Source of the DNA: an uncultured Candidatus Binatia bacterium
GTDB taxonomy: Bacteria; Desulfobacterota; Binatia; Bin18
Reading direction: 5' to 3'
DNA: 64,000 nt
NCBI GenBank assembly: GCA_965200965.1
Contig: OZ241744.1
Span: 1,600,001-1,664,000 of the forward strand
Below, piece by piece: positions 41,182 to 64,000 of the stretch (its first letter is position 1; each line of letters opens with the position of its first letter). The notes under the pieces were generated by a model. The model was not told the DNA's origin and did no database searches. It worked only from the letters and a program-made list of their open reading frames with translations. A program made the position numbers and the translations under genes.

Positions 41182-42500
41182 ATATCCGAAAGCTGACAAT
41201 CGAAGATGTCCGCTGCTTCGCCGGCAGACAAGAGTTCAACATCCGCCCCTTGACCTTTCTGGTCGGCGAGAACAGCACTGGAAAATCTACCGTGCTCGGC
41301 TGTTTTCAAACACTGCACAGCTTTATCGGGTCGAGAACATATCGAACAGATTTGGACTTCAACGCCGATCCGTACCAGATGGGCGCGTTTGCGGACATTG
41401 TAAGGAAATCCAGCCCTCGGAAGAAAAGTTTTCTATTGGGCTTTGAATTCCAATCTGAAAATAGGAGGATCGAGTATTTTGCGAAGCTGACAGAAAAAGG
41501 CTCCGAACCCGTTATCCAGGAACAGAAGATTATTTTCCCTGGCAATGAGATCGTCCTTGTCAAGGAAGAACAAGACGCTGAACAGTTGGACGAAAACGAC
41601 AGTGCCCGTCGCGAGTTCAAAGTTGTCGATTTTTCCGAAGAGGACGGAAACAAAAAATTTCGCGTCAGAGTACTTTTGCCCTTTTTTGGTGTGAGTGCCT
41701 TTACAATGCTGGGGTACTCGCGCTACATATTTCGAGAAGACCCAAAGAAGCTACCGCCCAAAGAAGAAAAGTTTCGTCTTTGTATAGAAGAATTCTCTAA
41801 ATTGGGAGATATTGAGGACGCATGGGGCAGCTATAGTTTTGCGCCAATACGTTCCAAGCCGCAGCGGACCTACGATCCCTTGAAAGAAAATATCAACCCT
41901 GAGGGGAGCGATATCCCAATGGTCCTCAGGGATATATCTCAGTCAGCAGATAAGGAGAGGTGGGAAAAACTCAAGGAGGGGTTGATCGAATTCGGCAAAT
42001 CGTCGGGGTTGTTTGCAAATATTCATGTCAGAAGGTTCGGAAAGTCTATGGGCGACCCCTTTCAACTGCAAATCAAGGTCAGGGGACCAAAAGCCAATAT
42101 GATAGATGTCGGGTATGGCGTAAACCAGGTGTTGCCTATTTTGGTGCGTTTGCTCGCCGATCCTCGAACGACGATATTTCTGATGCAGCAACCGGAGGTC
42201 CACTTGCACCCCAAAGGTCAAGCAGAACTGTCATCCCTGTTAGTCAATCTTCTCAAACGTCAGAGACGCAATTTTGTTATTGAAACCCACAGCGACTATA
42301 TGGTTGACCGCGCCCGCATCGAAATCATGAAAAAGAGAATTGCGCCGGAAGACGTTTCACTCATTTATCTGGAGCCGGCCGGCAATCAGGTCAAGGTTCA
42401 TAACATCACGTTTGACGAACAGGCGAACCTGCTCAAGGTACCAGCCAGCTACCGGGACTTCTTTCTCAAAGAATCGGACAAGCTGCTCGGTCTTGATTGA
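41178..42500 (+). CDS. ABC-type (AAA_15/AAA_21, DUF3696-like) ATPase
   Basis: Walker A GENSTGKST, DVGYGVNQVLPIL, LMQQPEVHLHP, IETHSDY; GTGA overlap with mod. Confidence 0.88.
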   Translation: MNIRKLTIEDVRCFAGRQEFNIRPLTFLVGENSTGKSTVLGCFQTLHSFIGSRTYRTDLDFNADPYQMGAFADIVRKSSPRKKSFLLGFEFQSENRRIEYFAKLTEKGSEPVIQEQKIIFPGNEIVLVKEEQDAEQLDENDSARREFKVVDFSEEDGNKKFRVRVLLPFFGVSAFTMLGYSRYIFREDPKKLPPKEEKFRLCIEEFSKLGDIEDAWGSYSFAPIRSKPQRTYDPLKENINPEGSDIPMVLRDISQSADKERWEKLKEGLIEFGKSSGLFANIHVRRFGKSMGDPFQLQIKVRGPKANMIDVGYGVNQVLPILVRLLADPRTTIFLMQQPEVHLHPKGQAELSSLLVNLLKRQRRNFVIETHSDYMVDRARIEIMKKRIAPEDVSLIYLEPAGNQVKVHNITFDEQANLLKVPASYRDFFLKESDKLLGLD

Positions 42501-42507
42501 GGGCGAA

Positions 42508-42927
42508 ATGATGTGCCTGATTCTGGACACGAATATGTACGGCCTGTTTCTCGTTCCAGACAATAAAGATATGGAACCCGTGAGGAATTGGGTAGACAGC
42601 AAGAACGGGAAAATTGCCTATTCACCAGCCGGTAAAATAAAGGATGAATTAGAGAAGTACCCGAAAATGAGAAAGCGTTTTGAGGTATACAGCCGGGACG
42701 GAAAACTCAAAAACTGCCGCCCGGAATATGTTGAGCAGAAGAAAGCAAAACTGTCACAATTGTGCTCGGATGACCCATATATCCTTGCTCTGGCTCAGGT
42801 CAGCAGGGCTGGCTTGTTGGTCTCTGCCGATAAGAAGCTCCACACCGATTTCAAGCAAATCGTTGGAGGCAAAGTTTACCAAACCAGGAAGCATACACAC
42901 CTGCTCAAGAAAGATCTCTGCCCATAA
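42508..42927 (+). CDS. PIN-domain putative ribonuclease
   Basis: ILDTN, DEL, SDDPYILALA, LVSADKKL give the acidic PIN tetrad pattern. Confidence 0.75.
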   Translation: MMCLILDTNMYGLFLVPDNKDMEPVRNWVDSKNGKIAYSPAGKIKDELEKYPKMRKRFEVYSRDGKLKNCRPEYVEQKKAKLSQLCSDDPYILALAQVSRAGLLVSADKKLHTDFKQIVGGKVYQTRKHTHLLKKDLCP

Positions 42928-42952
42928 ACCCGGCTGACCGTGGAGTTTGACT

Positions 42953-45637
42953 ATGGCCCTCCACCCCGACTTTCCCGATTCCCCCCACGCGATTCTCGAC
43001 CCGGAGCTTCGCTGGTTTCCTGCGGACGAAACCCTGCGGGAGAGCAGTGCCGAAAAGCTGATGCCGCCGCTGGTGGCCGAGCTTCGGCGTCAGGTGCAGG
43101 CGTTCCGCACCGGCGCTTATGCCGGCGCACGCCCGACAAGCAGGAGCCTGCTCAACTGGTGGTTTGAGGAACCCCATCTGCTGGAGCATGCCGATGGCAG
43201 CACCGCGGAGTTCCGGTACTTTTTTGCCCAGCGGGAAGCGGTCGAGACGATTATCTACCTGTGCGACGTGGTCGGCCTCAGAGACACATACGACCTGATG
43301 CGCTTCGACAGCAGCGGCGCGGTTTCTACCGGCATGTTTGACGAGACCTGGCGACGCTTTGTGGTCAAAATGGCGACCGGCACCGGCAAGACCAAGGTGC
43401 TGAGTCTCGTGCTGGCCTGGAGCTATTTTCACAAGCTCTACGAGCCGGATTCCAAGCTGGCCCGCAATTTTCTGGTCATTGCGCCGAACATCATTGTCCT
43501 GGACCGCATTTACAAGGACTTCCAGGGCTTGCGCATCTTCTTCGCCGACCCGGTCATCCCCGACAACAGCTTTGGCGGTCGCAACTGGCGAGACGATTTT
43601 CAGCTGACCCTGCACCGGCAAGACGAGGTGCGGGTGACGCGGCCCACCGGCAACATCTTTCTGACCAATATCCACCGCGTCTATGCCGGCGACGACGCGC
43701 CAGCCTCCCCGGACGACGAGAACAGCACGGACTATTTTCTAGGCACACGGCCGACCGGCGCAACAACCGACTCGAAGGTGGACCTGGGCATGATCGTCCG
43801 GGACATTGACGAACTGGCCGTCCTGAATGACGAAGCGCACCACATCCACGACAGGACGCTGGCCTGGTTCAAGTCCATTGAAGATATCCACAACCGTCTC
43901 AGGCACAAGGGGACAGCCCTGTCTTTGCAGGTGGATGTGACCGCCACACCCAAACACCACAACGGGGCGCTCTTCGTGCAGACCGTAGCCGATTATGCGC
44001 TGGTTGAAGCCATTGCCCAGAACATCGTCAAGCATCCGGTCCTGCCCGACGCCCCAAGCCGGGCCAAGCTGCTTGAACAGCAGAGCACCAAGTACACCGA
44101 AAAATACGCCGACTACATTGATCTCGGCGTAATCGAGTGGCGGAAGGCGTATGCCGAGCACGAGAAGCTGGGCAAAAAGGCCATTCTCTTCGTGATGACA
44201 GACGACACCAGGAACTGCGATGAGGTCGCCACCTATCTGGAAGGCCGCTACCCCGACCTGAAAAACGCCGTTCTGGTCATTCACACCAAGAAAAACGGCG
44301 AGATTTCCGAGGCCCAGACCGGTAGAGCCAAAGAAGAGATGCAAAAACTGCGTGAACTGTCGAACACCATTGACGCGCCGGACAGCCCCTACAAGGCGAT
44401 TGTCTCGGTGCTTGTGCTCAAGGAGGGCTGGGATGTGCGCAACGTGACGACCATTGTCGGCCTGCGCGCCTATTCGGCCACGAGCAACATCCTGCCCGAA
44501 CAGACGCTCGGCCGCGGCTTGCGAAAAATGTACGGCGGCAATGTACAGGAAAACGTCAGCGTTGTCGGCACAGACGCCTTCATGGATTTTGTGGAATCAA
44601 TCCAGGCCGAGGGCGTGGAGTTGGAACGGATGGCGATGGGCGAAGGCGCACAGTCCAGGCTACCCCTCGTCGTGGAGGTTGACACCGAAAACAACGCCAA
44701 GAACATCGAAGCCCTCGATATCGAGCTGCCCATCCTCACGCCCCGTCTCTATCGGGAATACAGGAACCTGGCCGCTCTTGACCCCAGCGCCATGCGGCCC
44801 CAGCCCGTGCCCTACCGGCAATTCAGCCAGGTCGGGCAACGCCCTATCGTCTTCAAGGATATCGTCACCGGCCAGGACGCCCATACGACACACCTCAACC
44901 CGGCCGGCGCAGCCGACTATCGCAGTGTCATCGGATATTTCACCCACACCCTTATGCAGGAATTGCGTCTGGTCAGCGGCTACGATGTTCTCTACGGCAA
45001 GCTGAAAAACTTTGTGCAGCATGACCTGTTTGGGCAGACGGTCGAACTGGCCTCGTCCACCACCCTGAGAAACCTGTCAGAACCGGCAGCCACAAAGACC
45101 CTGGTCGAAACCTTCAAGCGGGCGATCAATGCCCTGACTGTGCAAGACAAGGGCAAGGCGGAAATCCGCGATACCATCAAGCTCCGCAATACCCGGCCCT
45201 TTGTGGTCAAGGACCAAGGCTGTCTGCTGCCCAAGAAGAGTGTCTTCAACCGGATCGTCGGGGAGAGTCGCTTTGAGCTGACCTTTGCCGCTTTTCTTGA
45301 GCAATGCGACGATGTGGTGTCCTACGCCAAGAATTATCTGGCCGTCCATTTCAAGCTGGATTACGCGGCGGCTACAGACGGCGGCCTCTCTCACTACTAC
45401 CCCGATTTTCTGGTGAAGCTGAGCAACGGACAGGTCATTATCGTCGAGACCAAGGGGCGGGAAGACCTGGACGTGCCGAAAAAAATGGAGCGACTGCGGC
45501 AATGGTGTGAGGATATCAACGCGGTGCAGGCGACTGCTCCCTTTGACTTTGTCTATGTGGATGAAGACGGCTTCACCCGCTACAAACCGCAGTCGTTTGC
45601 GGAGTTGTTGGCAGGTTTTCAGGGATATAAGGGATAA
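42953..45637 (+). CDS. res: Type III R-M restriction subunit Res (SF2 helicase + PD-(D/E)xK nuclease)
   Basis: MATGTGKT, DEAHH, TATP, LKEGWD, EQTLGRGLR, YYPDFLV...IVETKG. Confidence 0.93.
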   Translation: MALHPDFPDSPHAILDPELRWFPADETLRESSAEKLMPPLVAELRRQVQAFRTGAYAGARPTSRSLLNWWFEEPHLLEHADGSTAEFRYFFAQREAVETIIYLCDVVGLRDTYDLMRFDSSGAVSTGMFDETWRRFVVKMATGTGKTKVLSLVLAWSYFHKLYEPDSKLARNFLVIAPNIIVLDRIYKDFQGLRIFFADPVIPDNSFGGRNWRDDFQLTLHRQDEVRVTRPTGNIFLTNIHRVYAGDDAPASPDDENSTDYFLGTRPTGATTDSKVDLGMIVRDIDELAVLNDEAHHIHDRTLAWFKSIEDIHNRLRHKGTALSLQVDVTATPKHHNGALFVQTVADYALVEAIAQNIVKHPVLPDAPSRAKLLEQQSTKYTEKYADYIDLGVIEWRKAYAEHEKLGKKAILFVMTDDTRNCDEVATYLEGRYPDLKNAVLVIHTKKNGEISEAQTGRAKEEMQKLRELSNTIDAPDSPYKAIVSVLVLKEGWDVRNVTTIVGLRAYSATSNILPEQTLGRGLRKMYGGNVQENVSVVGTDAFMDFVESIQAEGVELERMAMGEGAQSRLPLVVEVDTENNAKNIEALDIELPILTPRLYREYRNLAALDPSAMRPQPVPYRQFSQVGQRPIVFKDIVTGQDAHTTHLNPAGAADYRSVIGYFTHTLMQELRLVSGYDVLYGKLKNFVQHDLFGQTVELASSTTLRNLSEPAATKTLVETFKRAINALTVQDKGKAEIRDTIKLRNTRPFVVKDQGCLLPKKSVFNRIVGESRFELTFAAFLEQCDDVVSYAKNYLAVHFKLDYAAATDGGLSHYYPDFLVKLSNGQVIIVETKGREDLDVPKKMERLRQWCEDINAVQATAPFDFVYVDEDGFTRYKPQSFAELLAGFQGYKG

Positions 45638-47502: not shown

Positions 47503-47985
47503 CTAGCGGCCCGGGGCATCCGGTGCCTGGTCAGAGAAACGCTTGAGCAGAATATATGGCCGGCCGCCGATGCTGAAGACTTCGGTAATCCCGCTGGTGC
47601 CGTGTTGATAGCCGAGCAGCGTTCCGGTGAACCAGATCTGTTCCCCGGTCTGCGGCAGGTCTCGGACGAGGTCCTCATCAGGGAACAGCAACAGCAGGGA
47701 GTCGATCGGCCGCGCCTCCTGCGACATGGTCCCATTGCCGATAATCGTGGTCGGCACAACCGATACGCCAAAAAAGGTAAAATAGTCAATGCGGCCGGTC
47801 TTCTCGTTACGCCGAAAAAATCGACGCGCTCGGGGAAAACGGTAGAACTCCCCGGTCAGTGTCATTTCCTGACCGACTTTTTGCTGTTGAAAGAAATCGG
47901 CAAAACACGCGGCGACTCGTCCATGCGTGGCGGCTACAAGCGTGACCAGAGCCGCACAGCCCCAGCATCTGACGAGGGATCGCAT
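47503..47985 (-). CDS. Hypothetical exported protein
   Basis: Signal-like N-terminus; co-oriented gap filler. Confidence 0.55.
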   Translation of the reverse strand: MRSLVRCWGCAALVTLVAATHGRVAACFADFFQQQKVGQEMTLTGEFYRFPRARRFFRRNEKTGRIDYFTFFGVSVVPTTIIGNGTMSQEARPIDSLLLLFPDEDLVRDLPQTGEQIWFTGTLLGYQHGTSGITEVFSIGGRPYILLKRFSDQAPDAPGR

Positions 47986-48203: not shown

Positions 48204-49190
48204 TCAGCGCTGCCGCAGGCTGCGTAGGCGCTGCCGGGCACCGGGATAGGCCGGGTCGTAGCGCAACACCGCCCGCAGCTCAGCGGCTGCGCGTTCAAAC
48301 TGCCCCAGACGGGTATAGACCTCGGCCAACTCAAAATGCGCACGGGGGCTCTGCGGGCAGAGGCCTAAGCCCCGGTGGTAGAGCCGCGCTTTTTGGTCCA
48401 GGGAGCGGGTGGCGAAGGCGCGGTAGAAGTACGAGCGCGCCCGGCGACAGGCTGCTTCGTCGCGTCCAAACCGAGACGCCAGCGGCCGCTTGGGCGGCTC
48501 TGACAAGGCCGTGCCCAACGGGGCGGGGGCTTGGGCGTTCAGTTGGGCGGCGAGCCGCTGGAGCGTTTTGGCCCGCTCCGGGGAGGACGGATGGGACGAA
48601 AAAAAGTTGGCCGTGGCTGTTTCTGGCACTTCGTGGGCCATGCGCAGCATGACCTCGGCCCCGGCCTGGGGGTCGTAGCCGGCGGCAAACGCATAACGCA
48701 GGCCGACCGCATCAGCCTCCCGCTCCTGGTCCTGGTTATAGTGGTTCAGAAACAGGCCGCCGAGCTCGGCGGTCAACAGGCCGACGCCCGGATAGACGCT
48801 GTTGACCAGCTGGCTGGTCAGGCTGAGCAGGATGGACCTGAAAACCCCCCGGGACACATGGCCCTGGCTGAGATGGGCGATTTCATGGCCGACGATCGCG
48901 GCCAGCTCGTCGTCCGAGCGCACGAAGTTGAGCATACCGGTCGAAACAATGACGCGGCCGAACGTTGCCCCGGCGTTGATGGCCGGGTCGTCAGACACCA
49001 GGAGTTGGAACTGGGGAGGGTTGGGGATCACCGAGACCAAGCGGTCACGCACCTGTTTGAGCCGGGCGAGCTGGGCCTGGTGGACGACCTGGCCAATGGA
49101 CGGGCGGCTCTGGCCAAGGACATCCGCCACCAGCCCAACAGCGGAGGCACAGCAGAAAACGAGGCCCAGGCAGAGCCGGCCTGTCATCAT
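48204..49190 (-). CDS. M48 (BepA/YfgC-like) zinc metalloprotease with C-terminal TPR
   Basis: Signal peptide, INAGA, ELAAIVGHEIAH, QEREAD, FFSSHP, TPR AHFELAEVY..G....A. Confidence 0.9.
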   Translation of the reverse strand: MMTGRLCLGLVFCCASAVGLVADVLGQSRPSIGQVVHQAQLARLKQVRDRLVSVIPNPPQFQLLVSDDPAINAGATFGRVIVSTGMLNFVRSDDELAAIVGHEIAHLSQGHVSRGVFRSILLSLTSQLVNSVYPGVGLLTAELGGLFLNHYNQDQEREADAVGLRYAFAAGYDPQAGAEVMLRMAHEVPETATANFFSSHPSSPERAKTLQRLAAQLNAQAPAPLGTALSEPPKRPLASRFGRDEAACRRARSYFYRAFATRSLDQKARLYHRGLGLCPQSPRAHFELAEVYTRLGQFERAAAELRAVLRYDPAYPGARQRLRSLRQR

Positions 49191-49197
49191 TTTTCCA

Positions 49198-50532
49198 TCA
49201 TAGCCCTTTTTCCATACGCCTTCCAAACGGACGCTCCCCTTCCTCGCTGTAGTGCAGGGTGGCGTGCAAGCCCAGCCCCTCACGCAGATCACGGACCAGG
49301 GCGATATTATCGCTGTGGCCGGTCTGCTCGGCCGTCACTTTCCCGCGTAGTGGTCGTCCCAGCAGGTAGAGATCACCGAGCAGGTCCAGGACTTTGTGGC
49401 GGGCGAGTTCGTTGTCAAAACGCAGCGGGGGGTTAATTACGCCCTGGTCGCCGATCACAATACAGTTGTCGAGTCGCCCGCCGGTGGCTAGGCCCATCTG
49501 CTCCAGGGCCTGGACCTCTTTCAAAAAGCCAAAGGTCCGGGCCGGGGCAATCTCGGCCCCAAAGCTCCCGGCCCCGTGATGCACATAGCAGTGTTCCTGA
49601 CGGCCGACCGGAGGAGGATAGTCCAGGATATACCGGACCGAAAAATGATCGGCCGGCTCAATACGCAGCCCCTTGCCAGCTCCCCTGTCGCCCACCTGAT
49701 ACGGCCGGTTGACCGTAATGACTTCAACCGTCTCGTCCTGCTCAACGACTCCGGCTTCGTCAAGCAAGCGACAAAACTCGCGGGCCGAGCCGTCCAGAAT
49801 CGGGATTTCATCCTGCATCTTGATCATGAGATTGCTGATACCGTAGCCGTGCAGGGCGGCCATGAGATGCTCAACCGTGCGAGCCATAGCACCGTCCCGG
49901 TACAAACTTGTCGCATAGCCGGTTGATTTGACATAATCAACCGAGGCCGGAATCATCACATCGGTCAATAACGAGCCGAACACAAGCCCGCTGCCGGGTG
50001 GCAGCGGTTGCATGATCACTCCGGTCCGCACACCAGAGTGCAAGCCCTGACCGCGCAGCACAACGCTGCGCCCAATGGTCCGTGCCCGGACACACTCGCG
50101 CGGCTGCGCCCCAGCCTGACGGTTGGACGGCGGAGCGTGGTGGTAGCCTTGGACGGTGTGGTCGGCCGCTTCACGCCCAATCGCCCGATAGACCGAGCGG
50201 AGCAGGGCTTCGAGCGAAAACGGCTTTTCAATAAAATCGGTCGCCCCCAGCTGGGTCGCCCGGACCGCGGTCTCAATGGTACCGTGGCCGGAAATGACAA
50301 TGACCGGCAACTCCGGTTGCTGGGCGTTCAGTTGTTCAAGCAGGCTGATCCCGTCGAGCTGCGGCATCCAGATATCGAGAATGACCAGTCGGGGCTGGCG
50401 GCTGCGGACCAGATCAAGGGTGTGGGTGCTGTCGCCGGTGTCCAGGACCTGGAATCCCTCATCGCTCAGAATCCCGCGTAAGGTCGTCCGAATTTTTTCC
50501 TCATCATCAATCACCAGAATGGTGTCACCCAT
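49198..50532 (-). CDS. lpxC: Fusion of an NtrX-type receiver domain and UDP-3-O-acyl-GlcNAc deacetylase LpxC
   Basis: REC: VIDDE, LDIWMP, ISGHG, EKPF. LpxC: GQGLHSG, TVEHLMAAL, EIPILDGSA, ARTFGF, RHKVLDLLGDL, GH. One continuous ORF. Confidence 0.92.
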   Translation of the reverse strand: MGDTILVIDDEEKIRTTLRGILSDEGFQVLDTGDSTHTLDLVRSRQPRLVILDIWMPQLDGISLLEQLNAQQPELPVIVISGHGTIETAVRATQLGATDFIEKPFSLEALLRSVYRAIGREAADHTVQGYHHAPPSNRQAGAQPRECVRARTIGRSVVLRGQGLHSGVRTGVIMQPLPPGSGLVFGSLLTDVMIPASVDYVKSTGYATSLYRDGAMARTVEHLMAALHGYGISNLMIKMQDEIPILDGSAREFCRLLDEAGVVEQDETVEVITVNRPYQVGDRGAGKGLRIEPADHFSVRYILDYPPPVGRQEHCYVHHGAGSFGAEIAPARTFGFLKEVQALEQMGLATGGRLDNCIVIGDQGVINPPLRFDNELARHKVLDLLGDLYLLGRPLRGKVTAEQTGHSDNIALVRDLREGLGLHATLHYSEEGERPFGRRMEKGL

Positions 50533-52840
50533 ACCGTCCTCCTCGCTGTATCGCCGCGGCCAAGTCCGGGCTCAGCCGCTCTGGCCGTCGGACCGGCAGC
50601 TCAATAAGAAAGCGACTCCCGTGGGGGGTATTGTCCTGCACGCGCAGAAAAGCCTGATGATCGGCTACCACCGTGGCCACAATCGCCAGGCCAAGGCCCG
50701 TGCCGTCTTTTTTGGTCGAAAAATAGGGCTCAAACAAGCGATCTTTGATCTCCGCCGGAATACCGCAGCCGGTGTCGGTCACCTCAAGCCGAACGATGCC
50801 GACCGAGCGGAAAAAGCGGGTCAAGACCTCAATGTGCCCCGGCGAGCCGTTGCCACTGCCGTTGACCTGGGCCTGGCAGGCGGCCACGGCGTTGTCCAGC
50901 AGGTTGCGTACCGTCCGTTTGATACCCTCGCGGTCAAGGTCTAACAGCGGCAGATTGGGGTCGCAGGACAGGCTGAAATCCAGCTCCCGGTGGGCCTCGG
51001 AAAAGATGATGGTCACCTCCCGGATCAGGGCGTTCAGGTCCTCCGGCTGGTACTCGGCGGTCGGTAGACGGGCAAAGGTCGAAAACTCGTTGACCAGTCG
51101 TTTAAGTGTATTGACCTCATGTGCGATGCTCTGGACACATTCGTTGAACACGCTCTGGGAGTCGGACCCCTGCGGCGCAAAGCGACGGTGCAAGCGCTGG
51201 GCGGCAAGCTGAATCGGGGTCAGCGGGTTTTTGATTTCGTGGGCAATCCGGCACGCCACCTCACGCCAGGCTTCCATCCGTTCGACCCGGATGATCTGGG
51301 TCACGTCCTCAAAAAAGCACACCCCGCCCAACACGTCTCCGCCCTCGTCGGTCAGGGGTGCGGTCGTCACCAGCAGGGTCAGGGTCTGGCCGTTGCGCAG
51401 CAGGCGCAGCTGGCCCTGGCTGTCAGGTCCGCTCTCGCCGCCAGCGCACGGCGAGCCGAGCGGCTCGGTCAGCAGGTCCCCGACCATCCGCCGCAGTTCG
51501 GCGAACTCGGCCGTCCCAAACACGTCGCGGTAGTCGCGCCCAACGGCCTCCTCTGCGGCCACCCCCAGCAGCCGTTCGGCGGCCCGATTCAGCGTCGAGA
51601 CCAGACCGGCCCGATCCAGAGACACGACCCCGGCGTTCATATTGGCCAGCAGGATTTCCATATAGCACCGTCGGGCTTCCAGTTCTTGATGGCTGCGCTG
51701 TAGGTCGGTCGTCATCCGGTTAAAGGCGACCACCAAGGTCCCGACCTCGTCCTCGCCCTCGCCCTCAAGCCGATGGCCCCAGTGGCCCTGGGCTACCTCA
51801 CGGGTTGCCACGGCCAGTTGTTGGAGCGGGATGGCGATCTTTTTGGACAAAAAGAAACCCAGCCACACCGCGGAAAAGACCGCCACCAGCGTCGCCAGAG
51901 ACATGGTGATCACATAGCTGTTTTTCATCGGCTGCTTGAGAATTCTGAGCTGTCGATACTCGTTGAAGGCGTCCGTCAGCTGGGTTACCTGCCAGGCAAT
52001 GTGAGACGGCACCACATACTCGACAACGACCGCTCCAAGTACCTCATCGCGGCCCACATCGCGGCCCAGGATGGGCACGCCGCTGCGCACGACTTGGGTC
52101 TGGCCCGGGATGTGAGCCTGACGGACGGCAGTATTCTGGAACACCTGATCGAGCAACTCGGCGTCCACGCTGCCGTCCCCGCCAACGGCGCGGTCCGGTA
52201 CCGAAGTGGCCGCCAAGAGTTGCCGGTCGGGGCCAAAGATCAGAATGCGGCCCAGCTCAGAACGGTGACGGGTGGGCTCAACCAAGCCCCGCAGAGCCTG
52301 GTCTGGCCCAGCGGTCAAGCCCCGGGCCGCCACCTCGTTGGCCAGCCCGCGGGCGTGGAACAGGGCCTCGTCAGCCAAACGCTCGTAGAAGGCATCAACG
52401 CCGCTGAGCGCTTCGACCAGCGAGTTTTCGGGCTTGTTGGAAAACCAGTTGTCAATAGACCGATTGACAAAACCAACCCCGATCAAAAACAGCAGGAGAG
52501 CCGGCAATAGGGAAATCGCTACAAAGGCCAGGACTAGCCGGAAGCGCAGGTGCGCGCCCGGGAGCTTCTGCCGCCGTTCGTAAAAAAGCTTGACCAGGTT
52601 GCGACCGACCAGAAAAACGATCAGGACGAGCAGAACGATATTGAGGTTGATCAGCAGGACAAAGACGATATTACTGGCCAAGCTGTGGATGTTGTTGAAC
52701 TGTGGCAGCGGGCTTTGCGAGACGATAAACAGCAGGACGCCGAGGGCGGTGATCAGAATCAGCCCGCCTTCCCGCAGCCGCCGGCGTCTGGCGTGGGCTG
52801 ATTCTTGGGATGGGGAAGCGGACGGCGGTCGGGTGTCCAT
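50525..52840 (-). CDS. ntrY: NtrY-like membrane sensor histidine kinase (HAMP-PAS-HisKA-HATPase)
   Basis: SIDNWF, HAMP DEVGTLVVAFNRMT, AWREVACRIAHEIKNPLTPIQL, NLLDNA, DTGCG, GTGLGL. Confidence 0.9.
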   Translation of the reverse strand: MDTRPPSASPSQESAHARRRRLREGGLILITALGVLLFIVSQSPLPQFNNIHSLASNIVFVLLINLNIVLLVLIVFLVGRNLVKLFYERRQKLPGAHLRFRLVLAFVAISLLPALLLFLIGVGFVNRSIDNWFSNKPENSLVEALSGVDAFYERLADEALFHARGLANEVAARGLTAGPDQALRGLVEPTRHRSELGRILIFGPDRQLLAATSVPDRAVGGDGSVDAELLDQVFQNTAVRQAHIPGQTQVVRSGVPILGRDVGRDEVLGAVVVEYVVPSHIAWQVTQLTDAFNEYRQLRILKQPMKNSYVITMSLATLVAVFSAVWLGFFLSKKIAIPLQQLAVATREVAQGHWGHRLEGEGEDEVGTLVVAFNRMTTDLQRSHQELEARRCYMEILLANMNAGVVSLDRAGLVSTLNRAAERLLGVAAEEAVGRDYRDVFGTAEFAELRRMVGDLLTEPLGSPCAGGESGPDSQGQLRLLRNGQTLTLLVTTAPLTDEGGDVLGGVCFFEDVTQIIRVERMEAWREVACRIAHEIKNPLTPIQLAAQRLHRRFAPQGSDSQSVFNECVQSIAHEVNTLKRLVNEFSTFARLPTAEYQPEDLNALIREVTIIFSEAHRELDFSLSCDPNLPLLDLDREGIKRTVRNLLDNAVAACQAQVNGSGNGSPGHIEVLTRFFRSVGIVRLEVTDTGCGIPAEIKDRLFEPYFSTKKDGTGLGLAIVATVVADHQAFLRVQDNTPHGSRFLIELPVRRPERLSPDLAAAIQRGGRYG

Positions 52841-52865
52841 AGCGTCTCACCTGCTCCGCGGCCGC

Positions 52866-53927
52866 TCAGAACAACTCGTCCTGGCCTGCCCCGCCGGCCT
52901 TGGTGCGATCAAAATGGACGTAGGCTTTGAGGGTGGCCAGCCGTCCGCGGGGCGTGCGCTGGAGATAGCCCTCCTGAATCAGGTAGGGCTCATATACGTC
53001 TTCGATGGTATGTTTCTCTTCGCCAATGGCTGCGGCTATGGTTTCGACCCCGACCGGGCCCCCCTGGAACTTGTTAATAATTGTCAGCAGGACGGCCCGG
53101 TCCATTTTGTCAAAGCCGACCTCGTCCACTTCCAGCAGCCGCAGCGCGGCCCGGGCCACCTCCAGACTGACCACAGAGTTGGCCTTGACCTGGGCAAAGT
53201 CGCGCACCCGCCGGAGCAGGCGATTGGCAATGCGCGGCGTGCCACGCGAGCGACGGGCAATCTCGGTCACCCCGTCGGCGTCAATCGTCATGTGCAGGAT
53301 GGAGGCCGAGCGGCGAATGATCTGCTCCAGTTCGGCCGCCTGGTAAAAGTCAAGACGAAAGGTCGAGCCAAAGCGGTCGCGCAGGGGCGAGGTCAGCAGG
53401 CCCGAGCGAGTGGTCGCCCCCACCAGGGTGAAGTGTTTGAGCGACAACTTGACCGTGCGGGCCGAGGGGCCCTGGCCGACCACCAAGTCCAGTTGAAAAT
53501 CTTCCATCGCCGGATACAGGAACTCTTCTACCACCCGGTTGAGGCGGTGAATCTCATCAATGAACAGCACATCGCCGTCTTCCAGATTGGTCAGGATAGC
53601 CGCCAGGTCGCCGGGCCGTTCAATGACCGGCCCGGTCGTGGCCCGGATATCTACACCCATTTCCCGGGCGATAATATGGGCCATTGAGGTCTTGCCCAGC
53701 CCCGGCGGACCGTAGAACAGCAGGTGGTCAAGCACATCACCCCGCTGTGTAGCGGCCTGAATGGCGATATGCAGATTCTGTTTGGTGCTCTCCTGACCGA
53801 TATAGTCGTCCAGGCTGCGTGGGCGCAGCGAACCCTCAAGACGCGCCCCGCCGGCGTCCATCTGCTCGTCCAGCGACGCGTTCAGGTCAAGGACAGGGGT
53901 TCTGGGCGATTCTTCTGGCTTGCTCAC
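52866..53927 (-). CDS. ruvB: Holliday junction helicase RuvB
   Basis: [47 protein letters not shown]. Confidence 0.98.
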
Positions 53928-54514
53928 GCGCTCAGACTCCGTAGTGACTCCTGAATAATGTCGGTCAGCGTTGCCCGTCCATCGCGCAGAGCGCGCTGAA
54001 CTGCTTTTTCGGCCTGCACTTGGCGATAACCCAGATTGATGAGGGCCGATACCGCGTCCGCAGAAACCGCCGGTTCAGTGCCCGGGACCGCCGCGCCATC
54101 GCCGCCGGGAAACGTCCCGACCTTTTCGCGCAGTTCAACCACTAGACGCTCGGCCATTCTGCGCCCAACCCCCGGGACCGCCAGCAGCCGGGTCACATCA
54201 CCGGCCCGCAGAGCGTCTTCCAACTCCTCAACCGGGATACCGGACAGGATGTTGACGGCCAGCCGGGGGCCAATCCCGCTCACTCCCTTGAGCAGCACAA
54301 AGCCGGCCTTTTCCTGCTCGGCAAGAAAGCCGAAGAGTTGGAAGGCGTCTTCACGCACATGGGTGTGGATATGCAGACTGACCCGCTGGCCCGGCTCGGG
54401 CAGGCGATAAAAGGTCTGGAGCGAGACAAACACCAGATAGCCTACCCCACCGACATCAATGATTAGCTGATCCGTGGCCTTGTCTTTGAGCATCCCGCTC
54501 AGACGCGCAATCAT
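53924..54514 (-). CDS. ruvA: Holliday junction binding protein RuvA
   Basis: MIARLSG, GGVGY, HVRED, VSGIGP, VPGVG, ALINLGY. Confidence 0.96.
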
Positions 54515-54516
54515 CC

Positions 54517-55155
54517 TCAGCCCCGGCCTCGTGCCGAGCCACCGACCAGCAGGTCTGGGGCCAGACTGTCTACTGAAACCTGCCGCCACGAGCGCGGGCG
54601 TCTTTTGCTCCGACGGCCCATCACCTCGGCCAGTTGCGTCTGAATCTGAACCGCCAACGGAGAGCTATGACAGTGACACACCGCCGCGGCCAGGGCATCC
54701 GTCGCGTCCTGGCTGGTCGGCAAGGCCGCGGTCAGTCCATTGCCCAGCAGCGCAAACACGGCTTTCTGCACCTGGGCCTTATCGGCGCGGCCATACCCGA
54801 CCACCGCGGTTTTAACTTCGGTCGGGTTATACTCGGCAATCGTCAGCCCGGCCTGAGCCGCGGCCAGGAGGATGACGCCTCGGGCTTCTCCGAGCCGCAG
54901 GGCGCTTTGTACATTGTGGGCCACAAACGCTTTTTCGAGGCTCAGGGTATGGGGGGTCCAACGCTCAATCACCTCGACGATTCCCGCGTACACGACCCGC
55001 AGCCGTTCGGGCAGGGACGAGAAGCCGGCTGTTGAGACAAGGCCCCCGGCACAAAAAGCGAGGGCTCGGCCCTGACGGTCCACAATCCCCCAGCCAGTTC
55101 GCAAGGTCCCGGGGTCTACCCCGAGCACCCGTTCTCCTTTTCCCGTGTGCCGCAC
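54517..55155 (-). CDS. ruvC: Holliday junction resolvase RuvC (with basic C-terminal tail)
   Basis: LGVDPG, LEKAF, LGEARG, VKTAVVGYGRADKAQV, DATDALA. Confidence 0.95.
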   Translation of the reverse strand: MRHTGKGERVLGVDPGTLRTGWGIVDRQGRALAFCAGGLVSTAGFSSLPERLRVVYAGIVEVIERWTPHTLSLEKAFVAHNVQSALRLGEARGVILLAAAQAGLTIAEYNPTEVKTAVVGYGRADKAQVQKAVFALLGNGLTAALPTSQDATDALAAAVCHCHSSPLAVQIQTQLAEVMGRRSKRRPRSWRQVSVDSLAPDLLVGGSARGRG

Positions 55156-55184
55156 CGGTCCTCCTCTCCCACCTCATCAACGTG

Positions 55185-55937
55185 TCAGGCCGCGCTCAAG
55201 CGATCGAAGTCCTCTTCAGAGAACTCACAGTTGGCGGCTACGCTCTGGATATCGTCGTGTTCCTGCAACACGTCGAGCAGCTTATACACCTGCTCGGCCT
55301 CTTTGCCGGACAGGCTGACCGTATTCTGGGGAACGAGCGTCACCTCTGCCGACTGCATGTTCAGACCGGCCTGCTCAAGGGTGGCATGGACCGCATTAAA
55401 ATCCTCTGGACTGGTTACTACCTCAAAGCCGCCCTCGCCGCCGCTCACGTCTTCAGCCCCGGCCTCCAGCACAATTTCCATCAGCCGGTCTTCGTCAACC
55501 TGCCCAGCCCCGACCGCAATAATGCCTTTTTTATCAAACATCCAGGCGACCGAGTTTGAGGTCCCCAGGCTGCCGCCATACTTGGTCAGGAAATGGCGGA
55601 TCTCGGCCACCGTCCGGTTCCTGTTATCAGTCAGGACTTGCAGCATGAGGGCCACCCCGCCCGGGCCGTGGCCCTCATAGACGACCTCCTCATAGCTGAC
55701 GCCTTCGAGTTCGCCGGCACCTTTTTTGACCGCCCGCTCAATCGTGTCGTTCGGCATACTGGCGGCTCGGGCTGCGGCCAGAGCGGTGCGCAAGCGCGGG
55801 TTGGCCGACGCATCACTGCCGCCGATGCGAGCCGAAATGGTCAAATCTTTGATCAGCTTGTTGAACAGCTTGCCCCGGCGTGCGTCCTTGACCGCCTTTT
55901 TATGTTTGATCGTGCTCCATTTAGAGTGGCCCGACAT
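55185..55937 (-). CDS. yebC: YebC/PmpR family protein
   Basis: MSGHSKWSTIKHKK, NPRLR, YEGHGPGG, TDNRNRT. Confidence 0.96.
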   Translation of the reverse strand: MSGHSKWSTIKHKKAVKDARRGKLFNKLIKDLTISARIGGSDASANPRLRTALAAARAASMPNDTIERAVKKGAGELEGVSYEEVVYEGHGPGGVALMLQVLTDNRNRTVAEIRHFLTKYGGSLGTSNSVAWMFDKKGIIAVGAGQVDEDRLMEIVLEAGAEDVSGGEGGFEVVTSPEDFNAVHATLEQAGLNMQSAEVTLVPQNTVSLSGKEAEQVYKLLDVLQEHDDIQSVAANCEFSEEDFDRLSAA

Positions 55938-56124: not shown

Positions 56125-57876
56125 CTATCTCGCCCCAACGGCCACGACCCGGACCGTTATGATGTCGGTGTCATGGTACTGCTGGTGGCGCACCGATGAG
56201 GCGACATGCCGCAACAGACGCAGTGACAACTCGTTCTCGGCCGGCGTCCCAGCGGTCCGCTCGCCGAGGAGGGCGAGGCGGTCCTCAAGGTTTTCGTCGC
56301 CGCTCGTGGCCACAAACTCCAATTCCGCGGCGTTCCGGTCGCCGCACGCAACGAGCAGCAGACGCTGGCCGGCCCTTGTCGGTCTGTCCGCCTCGGGCTG
56401 AAGGAGGGTCAGCATGGTCTCTTCGCCGGCTGAGCACAGCCGCTCGGTGGACTCGGCATTCCAGCCCAGGCGCGATGCCAACTGGCGCAGAAAATCCTCA
56501 ATCTTTGGCAGGACGGCGAGATCGAGTTCCATTTCGATACGCCGACGGCGCGGGCCGGTCAATTCCAGGAACAGGGTCAGGACAATCGCCGCAAAGCCGC
56601 CCATTGTCATGCCGTTGCCGAGCAACGCACTCCAGGCCTCGCCGAGATGGTCAACGAAAATGGCCTGATTCTGAAATCCTACCCCCAGCCAGAAGGCGAC
56701 CCCGGCTACTGTGGCCTTGCGATAATCAATGTCGTCCTGGACGATGATCTTCATGCCCTGCATGAACAGCAGCCCCAGCAACACAAAAGCATAGGCGGCG
56801 ACGACCGGGCTTGGAATAGCCAGCAGAAGGGCGGTGGCCTTGGGCAGAAACGCCAGCGTGACGAAGACAATGCCGACGCCAACGCCAACACTGCGAGCGC
56901 CAACTCCGGTCAGTTCGGCGAGCGGTACGCTTGACGAGTAGGTCGTATTCGGCACGGTGGCGGCAAGGCCGGACAGCAGGTTGCCCACACCGTCGGCGGC
57001 GACTGCACCCTGGACCGTCCGAAAACTGATCGCCCGCGGCGCACGCCACGAGACCCGCTGAATGGCCACCGCATCGCCAACCGTCTCAATAGCGCCAACC
57101 AGGGTCACGAACACGAAGGCCGGCAACAGAGCCCAGAACTCGGCCCCAAACCGCAGGTCAAACCCCGGCCAAGCGAGCGTCGGCAGGCCAACCCAGGCCG
57201 CGGCGCTCACCCGTTCGAGGTCGTACAGCCCAAACGGCGAGGCAACAAGACAGCCCAAGGCAATGCCGATGACCGGTGCCCACAGCCGCCAGACGCCCGA
57301 GGCCCGCAGCGCCAGGGCCACGACGACGGTCAGGGTGGCCGCGGCGCTTATCGGAGCCGCGGCCGGTGATGTTCCCTCGGGCACATCGGTCAACAACTCG
57401 AACATGACCGGCATGATGGTGACGGAGATCATGCCGATGACCGTACCGGCGACGACCGGAGTGATGATCCGCCGCAGCAGCGACAGCCAAGCCGACAGCG
57501 CGAACTGGAACAGTGACGAGACAACAATCAGGCTGGCCAGCAGGGCCGGTCCCCCCTCCACCAGGGCCGTGATGGAGACAGAAATAAAGGTGGCCGAGGT
57601 GCCCATGATGAGGACATGGCCGGAGCCGATACGCCCCAGCCGGGCGGCCTGGAGGACGGTCGTCAGCCCGCTGATGAGCAGCGCCGCAAAGACCGCCCAG
57701 GACAAATAGCTCTCGCTCTGGTTGGCCGCCCGGATCACGATGGCCGGGGTCAGCACAATGGCTACCAGGACAATCATGGCATACTGAAAGCCGAGGCCCA
57801 GGGACAGGAGGTACGGAGGCTGTTCGTCGGGTTCGTAGCGGACATTCGGGTTATGACCGGTGGAATCGGCAGGCAT
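56125..57876 (-). CDS. NCS2 (xanthine/uracil-type) permease fused to a C-terminal RsbW/HATPase_c-like domain
   Basis: LGFQY, TPVVAGTV, IETVGD, ADGVG, NTTYSS; soluble tail LPKIEDFL..LGW....ERL..AGEE..., LSLRLLRHVASSV. Confidence 0.8.
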   Translation of the reverse strand: MPADSTGHNPNVRYEPDEQPPYLLSLGLGFQYAMIVLVAIVLTPAIVIRAANQSESYLSWAVFAALLISGLTTVLQAARLGRIGSGHVLIMGTSATFISVSITALVEGGPALLASLIVVSSLFQFALSAWLSLLRRIITPVVAGTVIGMISVTIMPVMFELLTDVPEGTSPAAAPISAAATLTVVVALALRASGVWRLWAPVIGIALGCLVASPFGLYDLERVSAAAWVGLPTLAWPGFDLRFGAEFWALLPAFVFVTLVGAIETVGDAVAIQRVSWRAPRAISFRTVQGAVAADGVGNLLSGLAATVPNTTYSSSVPLAELTGVGARSVGVGVGIVFVTLAFLPKATALLLAIPSPVVAAYAFVLLGLLFMQGMKIIVQDDIDYRKATVAGVAFWLGVGFQNQAIFVDHLGEAWSALLGNGMTMGGFAAIVLTLFLELTGPRRRRIEMELDLAVLPKIEDFLRQLASRLGWNAESTERLCSAGEETMLTLLQPEADRPTRAGQRLLLVACGDRNAAELEFVATSGDENLEDRLALLGERTAGTPAENELSLRLLRHVASSVRHQQYHDTDIITVRVVAVGAR

Positions 57877-58042
57877 CGTGTCAACCTCAGCGGACGAGAC
57901 AATAAGGGCGGAGGGTAGCAGAGACGATCTCTCCCGACAACACCTTTCGACTGCCGGCGCAATGCCCTGCAACGCTGGCCACCTTTTGCAAGCCCTGAAC
58001 GCTTGAGGCATCATACCCCGGCACGGGAAGAAGGGAGAGGGT

Positions 58043-60622
58043 ATGAAAAAATTGGGGCGATGGGGTGGCTTGGCCGGCCTTGTAGTGGTGATTGGCTCAG
58101 GGCTGGCAGGGGCGCAAGAGACGGTCGTTGAACTCGGAGCACTTCAGGTTGTCGGCTCCCGGCTGCCGGGCCGCTCGGCCCAGGACGCTCCGGTGCCGGT
58201 GGACGTGATCCAGGGGGAAGACCTGCGGACCTACGGCATCCGGGACATGAACAACCTGCTGGCCGCCACCATCCCATCCTACAACATCTCGCAGCACTCT
58301 GTCGGCAGCCAGGATGTGCTAGTCCGGCCGGCCAAGCTGCGCGGCCTGCCGCCCGACTCTACCCTGGTGCTCGTCAACGGCAAACGCCGCCACCGCTCGT
58401 CAGCGATTACGGTCTGGAGCCGGGGCCGGGCGCGCGGCTCGCACGGGCCCGATATTGCCGCCATCCCGGCCATTGCCCTCAAACGGGTTGAAGTCCTGCG
58501 CGACGGGGCCGCGGCCCAGTACGGCTCGGACGCGGTGGCCGGCGTGCTCAACTTTGTCCTGCGTGACACCGCCGAGGGCCTCACCCTGGAGACCCGCCTG
58601 GGCCAGCACTACCACGGCGACGGCGACCTGGCGAACATGGCGGCCAATGTTGGCCTGCCGCTGACCGAGGCCGGCTTTGCCAACCTGAGCTTTGAGTTCA
58701 CCAACGCCGACTCCACCAATCGCAGTGTGCAACGCGCCGACGCCCTGCCGCTCATCGCCGCTGGCAACGAGCATGTCCGTCGCTCGCCGACCCAGGTGTG
58801 GGGCGCGCCCGACCTGCACTATGACTATAAGTTCTTCGGCAACTTCGGCCTTGAGCTCGGCGACCATCACCACGCCTATGCGTTCGGCAACTATGCCGAA
58901 CGCGAACTCGAAGATTCGTGGTTTTATCGCCACCCGGCAAACTTCGCCCAGGTGTTTACCGACCCCTTCGGCCCCAATAACGGCGGGGGACCGAACGCCG
59001 ATCTGTTGATTGCCGACCTGAGCCCCGAGCTGTCCGCCGGCTGTCCTCGGGTCCCGACCGAAAACTACCTGCCCGACCCGGCCTGGCTGGCCGAGGTCCG
59101 GGCTAACCCCGACTGCGATACCCTGTCCCTCCACTTTCCGGGCGGTTTCACGCCTCGCTGGAACGGCACGGTGACGGACTGGAGCATCGCCCTCGGGCTG
59201 CGCGGGACGCTGCGCAGCCCCTCCCTGTCGCTCAACGGCTGGCAGTACGACATGAGCGGGGTGTTCGGCCAGCACCGCATCGTCGGCCGGGTCAGGAACA
59301 GCGTCAACCCGAACCTGATCCGCCTCGGGTCGGCCATGCCAACCGAGTACAGGGTCTCGGGCTATGCAGAGCGGGACATGCTGTTCAACCTCGACCTGTC
59401 CCGGCCGTTCGACCCTGGCCTGTTCGCGTCCCCGCTGAATGTCGCCCTCGGCCTGGAGTACCGCGAGGAAGAGTTCGAAAATGAAACTGGCGAACCCGAC
59501 TCCTGGTTCCGCGACGAAACACTCGTCGCCCAGGGGTTTCTGAACGGCGTCACCGGCCAGCAGGGCACCCCGCCGAGGGACGCGGGGGTGGCCAGCCGAG
59601 GCATCTTTGGTGCCTATCTCGACCTGGAAGCCGATGTTACCGGGAATGTCCTGGTCACCGCGGCCGGCCGCTATGAGGACCACGGGGGGATAGGAGACTC
59701 GCTTGTCGGCAAGTTAGCCGCCCGCTGGGAAGTGCTCAAGGACGCTGTAGCCTTACGCGGCTCGGTCGGCACCGGCTTTCGGGCTCCGACCGTCGGCCAA
59801 GTCAACTACCGCCGGGCTACCACCGGCATCGATCGGCGCAGGGGAGTCCTGGCCGAGGTCGTCACCCTGCCCGTAGACCATCCGATCGCCCGACAGATGG
59901 GGGCCAAGCCGCTCAAGCCCGAACACTCAACCAGCTTCGGCGTCGGCGCGGTGCTGACCCTCGGTGCCCTGTCGGTAACCGCGGACTACTACAACATTGA
60001 GATCCGCAAGCGGATTTTCCAGAGCGGAGACCTGCGGCTGACCGACGCCGACCGGGCCGCGTTGAGGGCCGCCGGCATTGACTTCTCCAGCCTGAGCCTG
60101 GTGCGCTATTTCACCAATGACTTTGATTCTACCACCCAGGGGGTCAACGTAGTAGCGACCTGTCCCCTAGACTGGTTCGGTGGCAGGACCGCCTTCACCT
60201 TTGCCGGCAACTGGAACAACTCCAAGGTTGATACACACGGCCCAGCCCTGCGCGACTACCATGTGGCCCATATTGAGGAGATTGACCCGGAGTTCCGCTT
60301 CACCCTCAGCGCGGACCACCGCTGGGGCCCGTGGCGGCTCCTCAGCCGACTGCGCTATTATGACGACTTCCACAGCTTCCCGGGCTTGTCCACACTCCGC
60401 AATCGCACCCACGCCAAGGCCCGGGCCCTGCTTGACCTGGAGGCTTCCTACACCTTCCTGAACACCGGCCTGACGCTGGCCTTCGGGGCCCAAAACCTGT
60501 TTGACACCTATCCGACCAAAAACCGGGGCGCGGCTGTCTTTGGCGAAAAATACCCAGTCACCTCGCCCTATGGCTTCAACGGCGGGTTCTACTATGCGCG
60601 GGCCGGATTTGAGTGGGGCTAG
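58043..60622 (+). CDS. TonB-dependent receptor 1
   Basis: Signal peptide, VVGSR, LRGLPPDSTLVLVNGKRRH, RVEVLRDGAAAQYGSDAVAGVLN, NLFD, terminal aromatic strand. Confidence 0.95.
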   Translation: MKKLGRWGGLAGLVVVIGSGLAGAQETVVELGALQVVGSRLPGRSAQDAPVPVDVIQGEDLRTYGIRDMNNLLAATIPSYNISQHSVGSQDVLVRPAKLRGLPPDSTLVLVNGKRRHRSSAITVWSRGRARGSHGPDIAAIPAIALKRVEVLRDGAAAQYGSDAVAGVLNFVLRDTAEGLTLETRLGQHYHGDGDLANMAANVGLPLTEAGFANLSFEFTNADSTNRSVQRADALPLIAAGNEHVRRSPTQVWGAPDLHYDYKFFGNFGLELGDHHHAYAFGNYAERELEDSWFYRHPANFAQVFTDPFGPNNGGGPNADLLIADLSPELSAGCPRVPTENYLPDPAWLAEVRANPDCDTLSLHFPGGFTPRWNGTVTDWSIALGLRGTLRSPSLSLNGWQYDMSGVFGQHRIVGRVRNSVNPNLIRLGSAMPTEYRVSGYAERDMLFNLDLSRPFDPGLFASPLNVALGLEYREEEFENETGEPDSWFRDETLVAQGFLNGVTGQQGTPPRDAGVASRGIFGAYLDLEADVTGNVLVTAAGRYEDHGGIGDSLVGKLAARWEVLKDAVALRGSVGTGFRAPTVGQVNYRRATTGIDRRRGVLAEVVTLPVDHPIARQMGAKPLKPEHSTSFGVGAVLTLGALSVTADYYNIEIRKRIFQSGDLRLTDADRAALRAAGIDFSSLSLVRYFTNDFDSTTQGVNVVATCPLDWFGGRTAFTFAGNWNNSKVDTHGPALRDYHVAHIEEIDPEFRFTLSADHRWGPWRLLSRLRYYDDFHSFPGLSTLRNRTHAKARALLDLEASYTFLNTGLTLAFGAQNLFDTYPTKNRGAAVFGEKYPVTSPYGFNGGFYYARAGFEWG

Positions 60623-63895: not shown

Positions 63896-64000
63896 ACTCA
63901 ACTTTGTTCTGCGTGACGCCCCCGAGGGCGGTACCCTCGAAGCCCACTGGGGGCAGTATTACCAGGGTGACGGCGACCTCGTGAGCACCGCGACCAACAT
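63363..64000 (+). CDS. TonB-dependent receptor 3 (runs off window; not in ORF track)
   Basis: MNLMNLPAWW...VVGSRLPGRSAADAPVPVDVI...LRGLPPDSTLVLVNGKRRH. Confidence 0.92.
   Translation, partial: MNLMNLPAWWQHWKAGLVMAAVLAAGPATAQNGGPPAPVGLEAFKVVGSRLPGRSAADAPVPVDVIDADDFKHYGVRDLNSLLAATIPSYNVSQHAIGDVNALVRPAKLRGLPPDSTLVLVNGKRRHRSSSISFFTFGLTNGSHGADISAIPAIALKRVEVLRDGAAAQYGSDAVAGVLNFVLRDAPEGGTLEAHWGQYYQGDGDLVSTATN

Follow-up and report, generated by a model that had tools for sequence, protein, structure and literature searches.

Within a 64,000-nucleotide stretch of the genome of an uncultured Candidatus Binatia bacterium (assembly GCA_965200965.1, contig OZ241744.1; here called the window, with positions counted from its first letter), we analyzed a gene in which a two-component receiver is fused to LpxC, the committed enzyme of lipid A synthesis, together with the kinase gene that overlaps it. 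Genomes, loci, and protein representatives are designated G, L, and P, respectively, G000 being the genome of the window. The fusion gene (49198..50532, minus strand) encodes 444 amino acids in a single stop-free frame and is the only lpxC of the genome. Its product consists of an NtrX-type receiver domain (residues 1 to 118; 50179..50532, minus strand) with the phospho-acceptor Asp53 (codon 50376-50374), a poorly conserved linker predicted to be disordered (residues 119 to 147; 50092..50178, minus strand), and an LpxC domain (residues 148 to 420; 49273..50091, minus strand) carrying the catalytic residues and a fusion-specific patch (S156, V158, G171, I173, M236, K238, and V269). The last 17 residues are absent from the proteins of L001, L003, and L004, which end at 427 amino acids. 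A preliminary description, drawn up from the DNA letters, had proposed a receiver and a complete LpxC in one frame, joined by a linker of about 30 residues and overlapping the kinase gene, and this anatomy was borne out by the open reading frame, by Pfam, and by TIGR00325.

Pfam models placed Response_reg at residues 5 to 114 (E 5.9e-30) and LpxC at residues 151 to 416 (E 3.5e-82), and the protein scored 276 bits against PF03331 (cutoff, 27) and 238 bits against TIGR00325, above the cutoff of 187.25. The receiver residues required for phosphorylation (D9/D10/E11, D53, S81, and K103) are all intact, and alignment to solved LpxC structures located E221/H222, H379/K380/D383, and H406, which we take to be the zinc ligands and catalytic residues of the enzyme; every residue pointed out earlier (DDE, Asp, Ser, and Lys in the receiver; VEH, HKVLD, and GH in LpxC) was found among them. 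By score and residues, the fusion is a member of the LpxC family, with a predicted deacetylase role. The best NCBIfam match of the receiver was NtrX (E 3.1e-39), and its best PDB matches were the NtrX receivers 4d6x and 5m7n. Against the NtrX model, the fusion scored 135 bits (cutoff, 600), and Pfam detected no AAA+ or DNA-binding domain in it, in agreement with the earlier claim that LpxC replaces the usual AAA+/helix-turn-helix output. By architecture the protein is thus not an NtrX, although its receiver is of the NtrX type, and it likely descends from one. Among 33 solved-structure matches to the fusion, none spans both the receiver and LpxC. One LpxB and one LpxK scored above cutoff in G000, where a sigma54 domain was also found. 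Around the catalytic His406 (residues 403 to 410), fused LpxCs are distinguished from plain ones by Thr404, an acidic residue at 408, a hydrophobic residue at 410, and the loss of Lys at 403. Residue 408 covaries with 287 and 353, and substrate binding may differ between fused and plain LpxCs.

The overlapping gene (50525..52840, minus strand) encodes an NtrY-type membrane histidine kinase of 771 amino acids, in which Pfam recognized HAMP, PAS, HisKA (His534), and HATPase_c domains. Hydrophobic segments lie near residues 22 to 129 and 308 to 333, a periplasmic region is predicted, and the H, N, and G boxes are present. His534 sits in an intact H box, and the residues for phosphotransfer are intact on both kinase and receiver. 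The match to NtrY_N (PF19312) was weak (21.7 bits; cutoff, 23.2), while the orthologues in L127 and L112 reached 28 and 35.5 bits. All 56 kinase orthologues share a Glu-x-x-Asn pattern in the H box, which is typical of kinases with phosphatase activity, and the orthologue was single copy in 211 of the 251 genomes sampled from the phylum. The kinase and fusion genes overlap by 8 nucleotides, and a GGAGG site lies 5 nucleotides ahead of the fusion ATG (both within 50525..50544, minus strand), an arrangement from which the two genes would be translationally coupled. A promoter and terminator scan of the kinase-fusion operon gave no usable signal.

We then examined whether the fusion is genuine. 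The G000 assembly (3.62 Mb, one contig, 99.3% complete) contains one LpxC by tblastn and one by the Pfam model, which answers the earlier call for a check of copy number and rules out a second, plain lpxC. Positions 49000 to 53000 lay in one contig without a joint in four of four runs from four studies; among these runs, X1 is possibly the source, and the most distant one shows 60 letter differences. Several of the runs with the locus are sponge metagenomes, and no RNA run was among those listed. An assembly chimera, which a lack of homologues across the junction would have indicated according to the preliminary description, was ruled out by the contigs of the four studies and by full-length matches in 114 of 121 genomes of the class. 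A conserved internal start for LpxC was likewise not found: the linker in the window has no in-frame ATG, GTG, or TTG, and a Met lies within 10 residues of the LpxC start in just 15 of 124 scored fusions.

The fusion is widespread. At least 120 homologue clusters at 63 to 100% identity were recovered, both Pfam domains being present in 120 of the 120 listed; the closest named loci belong to uncultured Candidatus Binatia (85 to 91% identity). Within the class, 119 of 121 genomes gave a fusion match, a single full-length one in 114 (counting the unpublished genome G323), and no second LpxC match was detected at E 1e-30 in the 121 genomes. Of the five incomplete matches, three were partial, including two at a contig start, and the other two (G251 and G327) were in pieces; in G251, the genes beside the fusion are broken as well, as from read errors. 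In an even sample of 251 genomes of the phylum, which homologue names suggest is Desulfobacterota, with six LpxC candidates scored per genome, 61 had a fusion-type match, the fused frame being confirmed in 49 and inferred from the score in the other 12. In a second phylum (that of G364, labelled Bdellovibrionota), 96 of 97 genomes had a match, a single full-length one in 88. Twenty further loci of the class were inspected, and in all 20 the kinase gene immediately precedes the fusion; the Response_reg-LpxC architecture with ntrY linkage, which the preliminary description had proposed to look for, was found across genomes. In the second phylum, an ntrY orthologue was present in 94 of 97 genomes and absent from the flanking DNA examined at 30 of 30 fusions. 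A related-locus search with the fusion protein alone returned the fusion in 10 of 80 loci. At the thresholds applied, and with six candidates scored per genome, neither LpxC nor free NtrX was matched in five near-complete genomes of one genus (G079, G146, G177, G207, and G237), nor was NtrY in G079.

Conservation of the receiver was compared with that of the enzyme. D53, K103, and the six catalytic or metal residues of LpxC were kept in all 211 pooled short fusions, and S81 was kept in 209; among 37 full-length representatives at 50% identity, 35 retained the phospho-Asp. The ratios of nonsynonymous to synonymous substitution rates (dN/dS) against four close relatives were 0.11 to 0.21 for the receiver, 0.09 to 0.13 for LpxC, and 0.38 to 0.74 for the linker; purifying selection thus acts on the receiver as it does on LpxC. 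Free NtrX was found in none of the 61 fusion-type genomes versus 163 of the 190 others, as counted by hand at a threshold of E 1e-135 that was chosen after a gap between 1e-130 and 1e-137 had become visible. Families f36, f39, and f55 hold both states, that is, fusion-type genomes without free NtrX and plain-lpxC genomes with it; G229, in f36, gave neither a clear fusion nor a free NtrX match. In G000, no free NtrX was found, the best match being a 41% paralogue. Of 17 ntrY loci that are separate from the fusion, none has a regulator gene behind the kinase gene. Since D53 and K103 are kept, the receiver dN/dS is low, and the genome has no free NtrX, the receiver looks functional, and the comparative evidence favors a working phospho-receiver. 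P0264, P0266, and P0301 would be natural controls if their genomic context became readable, the last being a divergent LpxC of the fused type that may stand alone.

Some fusions are longer, at about 685 to 745 amino acids, and consist of a receiver, a sigma54-type AAA+ domain, and LpxC. The short-form linker, which measures 26 to 65 residues in 124 of 150 scored fusions, occupies the place of this AAA+ region. A GAFTGA-type loop was present in all 19 free NtrX proteins examined but in 0 of 9 long fusions; all 9 were also altered in the Walker B and arginine-finger motifs, and no HTH_8 match was obtained in the 7 scanned. Judged by GAFTGA, Walker B, and arginine finger, the long fusions are not sigma54 enhancer-binding proteins. 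In an LpxC tree with Escherichia coli as the outgroup, the 78 fused domains grouped in a single clade (support, 90.6) with a long stem, placed within the 23 plain LpxCs; the inner branches were weak, and long forms fell among short forms in two places. The simplest reading would be a single fusion between lpxC and an entire ntrX, after which the middle part was lost repeatedly. Support in the receiver tree was low, with the receivers of the class grouping with alphaproteobacterial NtrX at 0.95 and others elsewhere, and more than one fusion event, or receiver exchange, is possible. G034 (L126/L127) and G199 (L128/L162) have a plain lpxC beside ntrY, a fusion elsewhere, and no free NtrX; they are possible transition states. 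Of the preliminary description, the anatomy and the NtrY linkage stood, as did, within the accessible full-text literature, the lack of a paper on such control; its reading as a whole is partly supported. The long NtrX-LpxC fusions with a decayed AAA+ domain had escaped it.

We next considered the state before the fusion. Both lpxC and ntrY were listed for 56 genomes; in 27 of these, a plain lpxC is found on the strand of the ntrY orthologue and no more than 5 kb upstream of it, frequently separated from it by a DUF4390 gene. Among 20 plain-lpxC loci selected by hand, 19 have a gene for a receiver-AAA+ regulator behind ntrY. A DUF4390 protein is encoded directly upstream of ntrY in many relatives, including those where the fusion is unlinked (L113:184-768, L138:3015-3602, L141:6222-6779, L152:6253-6828, L153:3389-3964, and L163:3316-3912), and may be a partner of the kinase in the periplasm; with a profile made from 17 of these proteins, no match was obtained in G000. 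With the sigma54 consensus and one mismatch allowed, a sigma54-type promoter was found ahead of 16 of 23 plain lpxC genes (one of which is a frameshifted fusion) versus 0 of 55 fused genes, many of whose upstream regions are coding sequence. Together, these observations make it likely that the ancestral NtrY/NtrX of the group was already dedicated to lpxC, a point that the preliminary description had missed.

This arrangement resembles one described in Desulfovibrio (DVU2931/DVU2934 and Dde_3000/Dde_3003; PMC3333781, PMC4045070, and PMC4641369). There, lpxC is the single target of DVU2934 of D. vulgaris (PMC3333781), a protein named ntrX, with kinase DVU2931, in the supplement of that paper and carrying GAFTGA (PMC4641369). 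In a D. alaskensis kinase mutant, lpxC was the sole strongly raised gene, and the kinase lowers regulator activity according to the authors (PMC4045070). In Syntrophobacter fumaroxidans, the orthologous operon has lpxC immediately ahead of it (PMC3333781), a layout matching the lpxC-ntrY-ntrX order of the 27 genomes. In G041, free NtrX stands behind a REC-PAS-HD-GYP gene, in the same order as DVU2933-DVU2934. The published DVU2934 operator pattern, present in two other genomes only (PMC3333781), had no convincing match where it would be expected in 24 regions ahead of plain lpxC, and the order of the kinase-containing Desulfovibrio operon was not recovered around ntrY in the 10 genomes examined. 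The link of this family to the Desulfovibrio system is well supported for the regulator, whereas orthology of the kinases is no more than a possibility. The systems also differ in their output: there, a free sigma54 activator with GAFTGA works on the lpxC promoter, whereas here the AAA+ and DNA-binding parts are missing and the receiver is joined to the enzyme itself.

We then asked how the receiver is placed relative to the enzyme. AlphaFold2 models gave a predicted template modeling score (pTM) of 0.84 with 54 as well as with 150 sequences, and the predicted local distance difference test score (pLDDT) was below 50 at linker residues 123 to 141. As LpxC alone makes up 0.62 of the chain and both domains make up 0.90, a pTM of 0.84 indicates a confident relative placement of the domains, and the models thus imply a fixed receiver-LpxC arrangement. 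Among the 78 fused LpxCs, several positions are fixed or nearly so: S156 (75), V158 (72), G171 (78), I/L/V173 (75), L/M236 (78), and K238 (78). The same positions are mostly polar and variable in the 23 plain LpxCs and lie on predicted strands of domain I; at position 269, all 23 plain LpxCs have Arg or Lys and the fused ones mostly a hydrophobic residue. The long forms and every deep group show this pattern as well. On the strands of domain II, most alternate positions are variable, E292 and Y305 being also fusion specific. Fused LpxCs have gained a conserved hydrophobic patch, whose residues would face outward by strand alternation and LpxC structure. Taken together, the modeled pTM and the patch suggest that the receiver contacts the catalytic domain. 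Receiver-LpxC covariation was rejected as support: the 211 sequences correspond to an effective number of about 57 at 70% identity, the top pairs look phylogenetic, and inter-domain pairs made up 44 of the top 200 versus 37% of all pairs.

Several known systems share features with the fusion. Alphaproteobacterial NtrY/NtrX resembles it in the domain order of the kinase and in the receiver motif, as reflected by the PDB matches, but differs in that NtrX there controls a wide regulon as a transcription factor and affects lpxC indirectly (PMC7240162). Loss of NtrYX in Rhodobacter sphaeroides indirectly raises the lpxC transcript 8.8-fold and lipopolysaccharide (LPS) about twofold (PMC7240162), and in Caulobacter, NtrY is chiefly a phosphatase (bioRxiv 10.1101/2021.04.17.440287). 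As the LpxC-FabZ fusion (NF009667) illustrates, LpxC can be joined to a further domain. The CheB methylesterase, the PleD and WspR cyclases, and the RpfG phosphodiesterases are response regulators with an enzyme output, in which, as here, a receiver and a catalytic domain are connected by a linker in one chain. With an intact receiver and an enzyme in one chain, the fusion would, from its domain content, join this group; the outputs of CheB, PleD, WspR, and RpfG are signaling enzymes, whereas that of the fusion is a committed enzyme of outer-membrane biosynthesis whose phospho-control is predicted. FtsH with YejM, and also MurA, reportedly control LpxC. Post-translational control by FtsH/LapB/YejM, Lon, Ght, or MurA (PMC12444477) acts on the protein, as proposed here. 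None of these factors is known to work through a two-component receiver on LpxC. A search of G000 for the LapB zinc ribbon gave no match, with a model of 28 positions that also matched unrelated controls. In a 2025 review covering lipid A regulation, two-component control of lpxC is treated as transcriptional only, and the terms "response regulator" and "fusion" occur 0 times in the main text (PMC12444477). In the full-text literature as far as it was accessible, subscription journals and domain-architecture databases being outside this scope, we found no paper on a receiver-LpxC fusion, in keeping with the earlier suggestion of an uncharacterized mode of LPS control.

On the basis of sequence comparison, the best reading is that a two-component system dedicated to lpxC shifted its action from transcription to the enzyme itself. 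In an ancestral lpxC-DUF4390-ntrY-ntrX cluster, NtrX would have activated lpxC through a sigma54 promoter. The ntrX-lpxC fusion would then have arisen once, its activator parts decaying and being deleted more than once while the receiver and the kinase stayed. In the present system, NtrY would phosphorylate or dephosphorylate Asp53 of the fusion, and the receiver would dock on the outer face of the domain I beta-sheet of LpxC and act allosterically, so that a change in this contact would alter lipid A flux without transcription. Phosphorylation may represent the on state, with NtrY serving mainly as a phosphatase brake. This direction is favored because the ancestral regulator was an activator held down by the kinase, because Caulobacter NtrY is mainly a phosphatase, and because NtrYX loss raises the lpxC transcript and LPS in R. 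sphaeroides; it appears somewhat more probable than its opposite and is the weakest step of the reading. We consider phospho-dependent control of LpxC in some form quite probable and lean slightly toward the narrower proposal of allosteric control by kinase-set receiver phosphorylation. With similarly slight preference, we read the plain, long, and short forms as a dedicated transcriptional circuit turned direct enzyme switch, preserved in living intermediates.

Several points speak against this reading. The phospho-Asp is lost in 2 of the 37 representatives, P0264 having Asn and P0266 being a long fusion with a degenerate receiver. The genome counts are not independent, since kin are included, and the NtrX threshold was set post hoc. 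The receiver tree has low support, and in G041 the ntrY orthologue lies on a different contig from the free NtrX. The receiver-LpxC interface is putative, being read from pTM and pLDDT values and from the patch. As the 78 fused LpxCs form one clade, common descent rather than selection for docking may account for their shared patch; most of it is also present in nine representatives in which no receiver was detected, several of which start mid-domain and look like fragments. Covariation is too shallow to use. Finally, the sheet face presumably lies away from the active site, and simple blocking is therefore unlikely.

The same data were weighed for other explanations. Phosphorylation could set the amount or location of LpxC instead of its catalytic rate, with the receiver serving as a phospho-dependent degradation tag or as a tether to the membrane kinase. 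Control of LpxC by proteolysis and membrane recruitment is documented (PMC12444477), and the residue conservation, dN/dS, and NtrX-loss data also fit this explanation. The C-terminal tails of the fusions are short and unconserved, with a median of 15.5 residues past the last catalytic motif, and no C-terminal tag is apparent. Taken alone, it leaves the patch and the high pTM unexplained, although a docked state could still hide a degradation signal; we judge it unlikely. A passive fusion through loss of a stop codon, in which the receiver would be a folding or translation aid or a phosphate sink and LpxC output would be independent of it, is made conceivable by the proximity of ntrX and lpxC beforehand, by the few representatives with a degenerate or undetected receiver, and by G034 and G199, which retain a plain lpxC beside ntrY in addition to the fusion. 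However, the AAA+ domain decayed and was lost while the phosphorylation site stayed, purifying selection on the receiver matches that on the enzyme, and the kinase was retained with no other regulator beside it, which leaves a passive fusion distinctly improbable.

Signaling could also run in reverse, with LpxC sensing its substrate or product and feeding back through the receiver on NtrY or another partner. Weak covariation pairs connect receiver loops by Asp53 (58 and 84 to 87) with the LpxC sheet, which could shield the phospho-site, and the long forms could once have relayed to transcription; however, the covariation signal is unreliable at this depth, the short form has no downstream output, and G000 has no free NtrX, making this very unlikely. 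Last, an assembly or gene-calling artifact, or an LpxC made from an internal start, would agree with the gene being in pieces in G251 and G327. Against it stand the contigs of four studies, the single open match in 114 of 121 class genomes, and the linker without an in-frame start codon: at the DNA level, an artifact is refuted, and the explanation as a whole has next to no probability.

The surroundings of the operon are conserved to various extents. Upstream of the kinase, Pfam identified yebC-ruvC-ruvA-ruvB (52866..55937, minus strand), a conserved ntrY neighborhood whose order is identical in L001 to L004, L006, and L007; ruvB precedes lpxC-ntrY-ntrX in L133, L140, and L142 and precedes ntrY in L171. 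Directly downstream of the fusion lies a gene for an M48 peptidase with a TPR repeat by Pfam (48204..49190, minus strand; start inferred), found at this place in the closest relatives only. Between it and an SLC13-type transporter is a 160-amino-acid open reading frame (47503-47985, minus strand) without a family match, which is 76 to 85% conserved in L001 to L004 and L008. Farther away, positions 38956-45637 (plus strand) hold a Type III-like restriction-modification cluster comprising an N6/N4 methylase, an AAA_21/AAA_15 ATPase, a small Pfam-negative protein, and a ResIII helicase-endonuclease. Positions 56125-58014 (minus strand) encode a protein of the Xanthine/uracil permease family that is extended at the C terminus by about 180 amino acids without a Pfam match, and positions 58043-64000 (plus strand) hold tandem TonB-dependent receptors, two complete (859 and 869 amino acids) and the apparent start of a third where the window ends.

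LpxC is a known antibiotic target, and the patch may mark an allosteric surface on it. Lipid A balance outside enterobacteria is described as largely open (PMC12444477), and the signal sensed by NtrY is poorly defined (bioRxiv 10.1101/2021.04.17.440287). If the proposed reading is true, NtrY signaling would become measurable as an enzyme rate with two purified proteins, and the series of plain, long, and short forms would be a rare record of a transcriptional regulator becoming a direct enzyme regulator. The data also suggest that the ancestral task of NtrY/NtrX in this part of the tree was lipid A homeostasis. The fusion would then represent two-component control of outer-membrane synthesis through the committed enzyme itself, across a class and most of a second phylum.

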